DNA of 22,932 bases, from the IMG/VR virus record IMGVR_UViG_2690316152_000015, positions 1 through 22,932 of that record, one strand, 5' to 3'. The notes under the pieces are model-generated. The model had not been told where the DNA came from. It ran no database searches and saw nothing but the letters and a program-made list of their open reading frames with translations. The position numbers and the translations under genes were made by a program. Below, piece by piece: positions 3,903 to 4,537 of this stretch (position 1 is its first letter; each line of letters opens with the position of its first letter). Source of the DNA: a virus. Lineage: Duplodnaviria; Heunggongvirae; Uroviricota; Caudoviricetes.

Positions 3903-3933
3903 ATAAAAAAGCCCCACCATTAAGGCAGGGCTT
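3903..3933 (-). terminator. Intrinsic terminator after the tail-tube gene
   Basis: Minus-strand RNA AGCCCUGCC-UUAAU-GGUGGGGCU (9-bp stem with two G-U pairs) followed by U6; homologous copy at 9733-9763. Confidence 0.6.
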
Positions 3934-3937
3934 ATAA

Positions 3938-4063
3938 TTAATCTTTAGCCTTGCGGCCTCGTTTTGCTGTGGCTTTCGCCGTAACTTCTTCTACTTCTGG
4001 AATCACTACCGCTTCATGTTCCGGCTGTGGTTCAGGTTCTGGTAAAGGAAGTTCTTCGTTAGT
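3938..4063 (-). other. In-frame 41-codon extension ORF after the TGA stop of the tail-tube gene (candidate read-through extension)
   Basis: No stop between TGA at 4064-4066 and TAA at 3938-3940 in the tube frame; encodes TNEELPLPEPEPQPEHEAVVIPEVEEVTAKATAKRGRKAKD; no start codon or RBS of its own; homologous to 9768-9896. Confidence 0.4.
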
Positions 4064-4537
4064 TCATCCGGCAGTGAAGATTTCCTGTTTCAGCGGAGCA
4101 CCATCAACAGCGAAGGTAAACTCTTTAGTCACCACTTCTTCATCGCCACCGTTCATAGCAACTTTAGAGATGAAGCCGTTGAAAGCGGTGCGAATACCAG
4201 TCTGTTTTGCTGCATCTACATAGTATTCAATCTTAATCTGAATACGAGTACCGTCTTCGGCAGCTTTAATGAGCTTCTCGTGTACCGCATCGCCTGGGAT
4301 GTAGTTAACGGTCAGAGTCAGATCAGGAACGTTCAGTTTACCTACCAGCTTACGGTTATACTGAGAAGAGAAGGATTTAACTTCTACAGTGCCGCGCTCG
4401 ATACCAGTTTCAGGAAAACCAGCACACTCTTTAATTTCTTCGTAGCTTTCATGATCGAGAGCGGTGTTAGTGGTATCGGCGTGATAGAACATACTTACCA
4501 GACCACCAGTAAAAATATCTTTAAATTGCTGAGACAT
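4064..4537 (-). CDS. Tail tube (major tail) protein
   Basis: 157-aa ORF with AAGGGG Shine-Dalgarno, immediately upstream of the chaperone and tape measure genes; paralogous to the N-terminal half of the 277-aa ORF at 8166-8999 (shared DIFTG, LTLT, KA.ED motifs). Confidence 0.6.
   Translation of the reverse strand: MSQQFKDIFTGGLVSMFYHADTTNTALDHESYEEIKECAGFPETGIERGTVEVKSFSSQYNRKLVGKLNVPDLTLTVNYIPGDAVHEKLIKAAEDGTRIQIKIEYYVDAAKQTGIRTAFNGFISKVAMNGGDEEVVTKEFTFAVDGAPLKQEIFTAG

Follow-up and report, generated by a model that had tools for sequence, protein, structure and literature searches.

Does the gene for the major tail tube protein of a tailed virus end at its stop codon, or does it run on, for a minority of its products, into the open frame behind that codon? 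The question is raised by the virus record IMGVR_UViG_2690316152_000015 of IMG/VR (Caudoviricetes), of which we analysed positions 1 to 22,932; this whole stretch of 22,932 nucleotides (nt) is called the window below. On its minus strand, the tube open reading frame (ORF) ends with ...ACT GCC GGA TGA ACT, the TGA occupying positions 4066-4064. It is followed by 41 in-frame sense codons (4063-3941), by a TAA (3940-3938) and by a terminator hairpin with six U residues, a 10-bp stem-loop at 3933-3909 whose T-run extends to ~3905. The same succession of TGA, homologous in-frame extension and terminator is found after the capsid gene. The original prediction had described both modules in these terms, down to the near-identical block and terminator that they share, and the sequence agrees with it in every detail. 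Taken together, the analyses presented here make it probable, if far from certain, that programmed readthrough of UGA generates minor, extended forms of the tube and capsid subunits from a portable cassette.

Both its fold and its gene order identify the product of the 157-residue ORF as a lambda-like siphovirus tail tube protein. A match to phrog_158 (major tail protein) has an E-value of 4e-21, and the Pfam Phage_TTP_11 score of 28.1 bits is just below the cutoff of 28.4. RefSeq labels a 96.7%-identical region 'phage tail tube protein'. A profile of the tube sequence matched none of the solved structures, and a fold search was needed instead. Using an AlphaFold (AF2) model with a pLDDT of 70, Foldseek retrieved the tube domain of lambda gpV and the tubes of YDC107, 80alpha and SPP1, with E-values down to 4e-7 (structures 7t4f, 8k36 (lambda gpV), 9mfe, 6v8i and 6yeg). 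The gene is located upstream of those for the tail assembly chaperone and the tape measure protein. The Foldseek match spans the N-terminal tube domain of gpV, and the extension starts where full-length gpV chains run on past the matched domain, into what we take to be the Ig-like domain, which projects outwards from the tube. A further gene on the minus strand (8166-8999), upstream of the long tail fibre gene and separate from the 157-residue tube gene, encodes a protein of 277 residues whose N-terminal region resembles a tail tube protein (phrog_158 E-value 1.6e-8).

The tube protein ends with ...FTAG before the TGA, and the extension translates as TNEELPLPEPEPQPEHEAVVIPEVEEVTAKATAKRGRKAKD. 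It is composed of an acidic, proline-rich spacer, with a net charge of about -9, and a basic tip, with a net charge of about +5. The spacer is kept in frame among relatives, with indels of 6 and 15 nt only, and the tip is basic in all alleles (RGRKAKD/N, RSRKAKD, KKQRKTKE, KKVGRPPKAK and KRRKSK). No Pfam family was detected in this 41-residue low-complexity segment at E-values up to 10, and it is not an Ig-like, FN3 or BIG2 domain. The tip of the tube copy in the window, KRGRKAKD, does not match AT_hook (PF02178). That family was found only on the capsid allele KKVGRPPKAK, below threshold (14.2 bits versus a cutoff of 17.4, E-value 0.039), and reading the basic tip as an AT-hook is weak. The extension region has no apparent internal start codon preceded by a Shine-Dalgarno sequence. 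The sole database ORF call for it, 33 residues long and starting with TTG, is an artefact that comes from the capsid extension, and RefSeq has no annotation from either TGA to the following gene (about 170-190 nt in the relative L025). The hairpins of the tube and capsid modules, the latter at 9762-9741, are the two best terminator-like sites between positions 3000 and 12000 of the window. The tube hairpin is conserved in RNAalifold analyses and is nearly the same as its capsid counterpart.

In the capsid module, the protein ends with ...QIGAE before the TGA, and the 42-codon extension reads TPVEPSEPSPDLGEENLIPEPEEESQTVKAKATVKKQRKTKE. The two modules form an 80-nt direct repeat with 74% identity, and GCGAAAGCCACAG occurs exactly twice in the window, once in each module, for a chance expectation of 0.05. 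Over 44 distinct module sequences, the GGCGAAAGCCACAG block is nearly invariant, and the flanks on both of its sides differ by allele. A 20-nt block, GTTAC/AGGCGAAAGCCACAG, found at 3967-3986 and 9797-9816, is almost frozen in the 44 distinct modules, synonymous sites included; it may represent a recombination junction or an RNA element. Of the 23 genes of the window, 17 end with TAA and six with TGA. Apart from the capsid and tube genes, the TGA-A combination is found only at the tape measure gene, which is truncated by an insertion sequence (IS) and whose TGA-ACT probably belongs to the end of that element. The genes for the two most abundant virion proteins use TGA in a TAA-rich window. The features of both modules are collected in Table 1.

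Table 1. Positions of the tube and capsid genes and of the elements of their 3' modules in the window.
Feature	Positions	Strand	Description
Major tail tube protein gene	4067..4537	minus	157 aa; lambda gpV N-domain-like fold; phrog_158
Leaky-type stop, TGA 4066-4064 and 3' A 4063	4063..4066	minus	TGAA invariant in relatives
Extension part 1, acidic proline-rich spacer, 27 codons TNEELPLPEPEPQPEHEAVVIPEVEEV	3983..4063	minus	9 Glu, no Lys/Arg
Extension part 2, basic tip, 14 codons TAKATAKRGRKAKD	3941..3982	minus	4 Lys, 2 Arg, 1 Asp
Block GGCGAAAGCCACAG	3967..3980	minus	Identical in the two modules of the window; potential GGC-GAAA-GCC mini-hairpin
Second stop TAA	3938..3940	minus	Closes the extension 4 nt ahead of the terminator stem
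Intrinsic terminator, 10-bp stem, 5-nt loop, T6	3903..3933	minus	Top terminator-like site in 3000-12000
Fused prohead protease-scaffold-major capsid protein gene	9900..11909	minus	670 aa; Pfam Peptidase_S78 and Phage_capsid; phrog_617, E 1e-89
Capsid module (copy 1)	9736..9899	minus	TGA 9899-9897; 42 codons 9896-9771; TAATAA 9770-9765; terminator 9762-9741 and T-run

The prediction depended on the extension being conserved as an open frame in relatives, and it withstood that comparison: the frame is open in every relative that has the extension, and always behind TGA-A. The tube set comprised 26 copies, from the window, 23 IMG/VR loci (82-99% amino acid identity), one complete Escherichia coli genome and one ENA contig, and the capsid set comprised 34 copies, including 28 IMG/VR capsid relatives and four more loci. 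All 26 tube copies, representing 15 distinct nucleotide versions, keep both the stop and the frame. Their extensions fall into three length classes of 36, 39 and 41 codons (114, 123 and 129 nt with both stops). The same holds for the 34 capsid copies, with 19 versions and five length classes, all of them multiples of three. In all 60 copies the TGA is followed by A, as it is in five further metagenome tube copies, which were retrieved with a pattern that left the stop as NNN (5/5). The second stop is TAA in every tube copy and TAATAA in every capsid copy. Within the extensions, no copy has a stop in frame 0, and frames +1 and +2 contain one to seven. In the window itself, both the -1 and the +1 frames are closed and frame 0 is open, unlike the arrangement of a frameshift product.

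This open frame survives several indels and allele swaps in relatives. In nucleotide alignments, the indels of the extensions measure 48, 3, 6, 3, 6 and 15 nt, six out of six being multiples of three, whereas those of the adjoining terminator loop and spacer measure 3, 2, 1, 1, 1 and 1 nt, five out of six not being multiples of three (one-sided Fisher test, p = 0.0076). The ratio of non-synonymous to synonymous polymorphism (pN/pS) reaches 0.40 in the tube extension and 0.42 in that of the capsid, compared with 0.13 and 0.24, respectively, for the 120 codons upstream, in line with only moderate purifying selection on the peptide. The design is also present at a larger distance. A Providencia prophage, whose capsid protein is 52% identical over its 250 C-terminal residues, has TGA ACT AAC, an in-frame TNEELPEEEPLPVATEKSTKRRKSK, a stop and a terminator after its capsid gene. 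Its extension is likewise acidic and then basic, and TGA-A is kept. Judged by these sequence comparisons, the pattern favours a coding extension and is significant beyond chance.

In the reading that we favour, the 164-nt segment would thus be a portable cassette made of a leaky stop, an extension and a terminator. Most ribosomes would stop at the UGA and release the normal 157-residue tube subunit, and a few percent would decode it, most likely with tRNA-Trp in competition with RF2 and helped by the invariant 3' A. Engelberg-Kulka reportedly found in 1981 that a 3' A favours UGA readthrough by weakening termination. In E. coli, Trp-tRNA competing with RF2 gives UGA readthrough at about 1e-3 to 1e-2 (PMC10570021). 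Readthrough would add 42 residues, namely the inserted residue, the 27-residue acidic spacer and the 14-residue Lys/Arg-rich tip, before ending at the TAA that precedes the terminator. With Trp at the stop, the predicted peptide across the junction is ...IFTAG-W-TNEELPLPEPEPQPEHEAVVIPEVEEVTAK, and the added segment, spacer included, is probably disordered. As the same cassette lies behind the capsid gene, virions would carry a few extended copies of both major subunits, with a few tube subunits per tail and a few capsid subunits per head bearing the extension. The tip is most likely displayed on the outside of the tube, since the extension is located at a gpV-like C-terminus, where gpV has its Ig-like domain. 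There it might bind weakly, in the manner of a polycationic adhesin or cement, to anionic surfaces (lipopolysaccharide, capsule, mucus or DNA, for example). We propose such a function, common to head and tail, with low confidence and because external display and adhesion would be the most economical role for both. The original prediction had suggested nucleic-acid or surface binding by the basic tail, which its composition makes plausible.

That prediction also placed a shared tail on head and tail subunits. The second homologous copy is real, but the tube copy proved to be confined to one clade. Sister tube alleles of the same prophage family (73% and 58% identity) have TAA or TAATAA at the same alignment column and no extension. 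Their own, different terminator comes directly after the stop, and their capsid genes carry TGA-A and the extension. The tube extension is therefore likely to be a clade-specific, dispensable graft. Consistent with this, the terminator of the tube module in the window resembles that of the capsid module, not that of the sister tube alleles. The tube module begins with TGA ACT AAC GAA GAA CTT CC, the short capsid allele with TGA AAT AAC GAA GAA TTG CC, and the Providencia capsid module with TGA ACT AAC GAA GAG TTG CC; both of these capsid starts are homologous to that of the tube module. The homology of the tube and capsid modules starts precisely at the TGA, and the last residue of the tube protein falls in the alignment column where the extension-less alleles also end. 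The simplest reading of homology from the stop codon onward, together with the sister alleles, is that in one clade the capsid cassette was copied in frame onto the native stop of the tube gene.

A 14-mer scan of IMG/VR, which before filtering gave mostly chance matches, detected the cassette, among the matches listed, only behind capsid or tube genes of the prophage family. On the same grounds, we rejected the possibility that the module is a generic mobile terminator. The Edwardsiella and Proteus tube proteins have directly encoded tails at their C-termini (...NVIPEAVAAKEK), which we also considered as homologues of the extension. This is unsupported, as the BLASTP alignment stops at the tube domain. 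In the clade with the tube extension, a gp38-like adhesin gene (3383-3889, minus; Gp38_N, phrog_1121) is found after the tube terminator, between the tube and chaperone genes, and the tube gene separates it from the long tail fibre gene (4595-8089). The gp38 gene is between the fibre and tube genes in an Edwardsiella relative and is absent from this position in the sister E. coli clades.

To place the capsid copy in a wider family, we collected relatives with a profile of capsid C-termini, down to 28% identity. Many of the distant ones have a short, directly encoded Ala/Glu/Lys tail, such as EASKAK in Salmonella or AEAKSKA, AEAKAGK, AEAKAAKQ and ETRKAK in others. Another group has its tail in the -1 frame. 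It includes the E. coli phage DCP80, Proteus and Edwardsiella prophages, and the loci L220 and L223-L225. From a GAA/GTA-AAA/AAG site that precedes the capsid stop by three to four codons, their -1 frame is open through to a basic tail (...TGAQAAPVRKPRALKVTK, ...RKAKAKAETAE, ...EVSVKKAKKAKAE, ...AAPVKKSKSASG) that ends a few bases ahead of the terminator. Canonical slippery heptamers are present in L225 (A AAA AAG) and L224 (A AAA AAA). These tails, including that of DCP80, an isolated phage, are candidate programmed -1 frameshift products. They lie at 7770-7900 in L001, 4550-4650 in L067 and 1770-1860 in L065, and at the capsid 3' ends of L220 and L223-L225. For the Proteus and Edwardsiella loci, the -1 tail can also be read in terms of a GTGA start/stop overlap. 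DCP80 is the closest isolated phage, with 44% protein identity, and is devoid of the in-frame extension.

A Hafnia-type capsid gene (L066, 4669-4690) reads ...AGV TAA GCT AAA TCT AAA GAT TAA, where close relatives (L219) have ...AGVEAKSKA. This GAA to TAA change would have cut off its short basic tail or left it behind the stop. The Proteus capsid had no match when IMG/VR was scanned with it, and queries with the capsid C-terminus plus extension, or with the capsid domain, returned only close or partial E. coli proteins. Altogether, comparison of these genes suggests that a basic C-terminal tail is recurrent in the capsid family, encoded directly, by a probable -1 frameshift, or behind UGA in the E. 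coli and Providencia clade.

Several observations weigh against programmed readthrough. We did not find a conserved readthrough-stimulating RNA structure 3' of the stop, and in dinucleotide shuffles a single 41-codon open frame arises by chance with P 0.09-0.36, so that it is not significant alone. Variable sites are distributed over the three codon positions as 11/9/14 in the tube extension and 9/16/14 in the capsid extension, with no third-position excess. Synonymous divergence is 0.07 in the extension versus 0.22-0.31 in the upstream genes. Together with the frozen 20-nt block, this low value points to gene conversion or to a constraint at the RNA level, added to coding or replacing it. The N-terminal and C-terminal half-alleles of the extension are visibly reshuffled, and recombination or gene conversion is likely to be frequent, as the low module divergence fits such reshuffling. 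The sister tube alleles indicate that tube function does not need the extension. In the window, the tape measure gene has an IS element in it and codes for 583 residues, compared with about 770-845 in relatives. Lastly, a profile of the two window extensions, searched against the representatives of a 1.84-billion-protein library, identified no fusion through a sense codon; the search returned only an unrelated repeat protein and the 33-residue spurious ORF mentioned above. A 198-residue tube protein with W at the stop, P0001, was rejected as a natural fusion of this kind. The DNA has TGA, and the W is explained by a gene call made under a code that reads TGA as Trp.

Low synonymous divergence and the lack of third-position bias would be accounted for if the segment were an untranslated relic or 3' untranslated region (UTR), that is, a former tail cut by a nonsense mutation, or a spacer, moving with its terminator by recombination. 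Its resemblance to a coding frame would then be due only to recent common ancestry and to gene conversion between copies. The shuffling of extension alleles across capsid backgrounds speaks for this explanation, as do the existence of direct-tail relatives, the Hafnia-type locus with TAA for the GAA of its relatives followed by AKSKD, and the tube alleles that do without the segment. Nevertheless, an untranslated segment would not explain why six out of six extension indels are multiples of three and only one out of six next to it, nor why frame 0 is free of stops over 15 tube and 19 capsid versions when other frames have one to seven. TGA-A never becomes TAA, TAG or TGA with another 3' base, and the design persists in Providencia at much greater divergence. 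Moreover, an untranslated gap of 120 nt would be unusual, as other genes, including the extension-less tube alleles, have their terminator right after the stop. We therefore regard a relic as unlikely, if worth serious consideration. Rather unlikely too, in our view, is that readthrough occurs for the sake of regulation, with ribosomes passing the TGA and reaching the TAA, 2-5 nt from the stem, where they would block the hairpin and set downstream transcription, the peptide being incidental. In all lineages, those with -1-frame versions included, the extension ORF closes 2-7 nt ahead of the terminator stem, and selection on the peptide sequence is weak. No promoter-like site was found after the terminator of the tube or capsid module, and the downstream genes would thus depend on terminator bypass. 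However, a pure spacer would not need the acidic-then-basic pattern that is kept across alleles sharing little sequence, and pN/pS is below 1. A run-up of 40 codons would be needless, since ordinary genes of the family already end beside terminators, and many relatives encode a comparable tail directly on every capsid subunit.

The near-invariance of the 14-20-nt block, synonymous positions included, about 30 nt upstream of a strong U6 terminator and on two highly transcribed mRNAs, would suit a small RNA (sRNA) derived from the 3' UTRs of the capsid and tube mRNAs, with GGCGAAAGCCACAG as its seed and the terminator and U-tail as the Hfq-binding end. Such an sRNA would leave the open frame and the indels in multiples of three unexplained, together with the invariant TGA-A 85-130 nt upstream of the block. 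In Providencia, the block is altered by substitutions of the non-synonymous type and frame and charge are kept. A search of Rfam with the module identified no family, and the only conserved structures are the mini-hairpin and the terminator; we consider the sRNA explanation very improbable. Finally, the UGA could be decoded specifically, as selenocysteine or by a phage suppressor tRNA, rather than at a low level by tRNA-Trp. The conserved in-frame UGA is all that speaks for this, and no conserved hairpin is present within about 40 nt 3' of it, nor any match to the selenocysteine insertion sequence (SECIS) families of Rfam. ARAGORN detected no suppressor tRNA in the window, its only call being a doubtful 91-nt tRNA-Gln, and four other window genes end with TGA, not counting the IS-truncated tape measure gene. 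Specific recoding is thus the least credible of the explanations, with next to nothing to recommend it. The tRNA-Gln(TTG) call, at 9154-9244 on the plus strand and opposite the ORF 9009-9479, has a length and location that suggest a false positive.

The window belongs to a family of ~35-kb prophages integrated in hicB and carried by 22 of 5,426 complete E. coli genomes. Megablast searches with both module regions against 50,697 phage genomes gave no match, and a tube-protein profile had no hits in 100,044 representative genomes. The gene orfB of an IS3-family transposase (rve, HTH_21; 1-888, plus) abuts the end of the tape measure gene (window 1-893). This prophage copy is probably defective, as the transposase adjoins the shortened tape measure gene. 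Two direct repeats of 92 nt, 80% identical and spaced by 153 nt (7623-7867), indicate that the long tail fibre gene was duplicated internally in the part encoding the shaft. A TTCAGGGGCAA(A/T)-type motif recurs several times among the non-structural genes of the prophage, at 16965-16984 and 19327-19447; these motifs may be operator or iteron sites. Three intergenic copies of TCTAGAATCATCTAGTAAC-like 23-mers are found in 18895-19119, 60 and 142 nt apart.

Programmed UGA readthrough of the tube and capsid genes, as favoured here, would have partial parallels among known systems. The capsid gene of T7 is directly followed by the strong terminator T-phi, and its 10B extension is surface-exposed and dispensable. 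In T7 and T3, 10A and 10B are products of the same gene, and recoding at its 3' terminus gives the minor form of the major capsid protein its C-terminal extension (Atkins et al. 2016, PMC5009743). The likeness lies in a recoding site at the extreme 3' end of the capsid gene and in an extended minor subunit. In contrast, theirs is a -1 frameshift, the extension is another one (Ig-like in T3), and no matching cassette is present on the tail tube gene. In the Listeria phages A118, A500 and PSA, the capsid (cps) and major tail (tsh) genes each give a longer product by 3'-end recoding, and the tsh site abuts the stop, CCC_UGA (PMC5009743). These phages resemble the present case in that both the capsid and tail genes of one phage are extended at the 3' end, but they do so by +1 or -1 frameshifts, whereas the extensions described here are in frame behind UGA-A and belong to homologous cassette copies that include the terminator.

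The closest parallel to the proposed decoding route, in-frame UGA readthrough, is phage Qbeta. The UGA of the Qbeta coat gene also has a 3' A context. It is read through at ~5% in E. coli, which yields the minor coat protein A1, an extended capsid subunit (PMC7026636). However, Qbeta is a single-stranded RNA phage with a folded extension of nearly 200 residues that is needed for infectious particles. Here, the virus is a prophage of the siphovirus type with a double-stranded DNA (dsDNA) genome, and the tail has ~40 residues of low complexity, with a tube copy that is dispensable in sister clades. Accessory C-terminal modules, sometimes present on a fraction of the subunits via recoding, are also known as Ig-like domains (the C-domain of lambda gpV, SPP1 gp17.1* and T3 10B). 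The extension differs from them in having 41 residues that form an acidic, proline-rich spacer and a basic tip rather than a folded Ig-like domain. Ig-like C-terminal domains are carried from gene to gene by non-homologous recombination, which may place them in frame or out of it (PMC5009743). By analogy, the switch of the capsid family between direct, -1 and UGA-dependent tails would mirror the argument made there for such domains.

Tailed phages are known to place C-terminal modules on part of their capsid or tail subunits through ribosomal frameshifting, and readthrough of a stop codon is the classic route of RNA viruses such as Qbeta. Our full-text literature search retrieved no paper in which a structural gene of a tailed phage undergoes stop-codon readthrough, and we know of no such description for the major structural proteins of any dsDNA phage. 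It is possible, but we advance it only tentatively, that the cassette (UGA-A, acidic spacer, polycationic tip, tight stop and terminator) can be grafted onto any abundant virion gene so that a tuned minority of its products exposes a cationic tether, that within the capsid family the occupancy of such tails is set by switching between direct encoding, -1 frameshifting and UGA readthrough, and that the locus represents the first programmed readthrough in a tailed dsDNA phage and a new class of head-tail decoration. If our reading is correct, similar cassettes may be overlooked elsewhere, since annotation pipelines leave these stretches of ~130-190 nt blank. It would also extend the recoding mechanisms of phage morphogenesis beyond frameshifting and provide a natural example of a single cassette serving both head and tail. 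Related capsid genes would then reach a similar basic tail by three decoding routes, which would make this family a system for the tuning of decoration stoichiometry.

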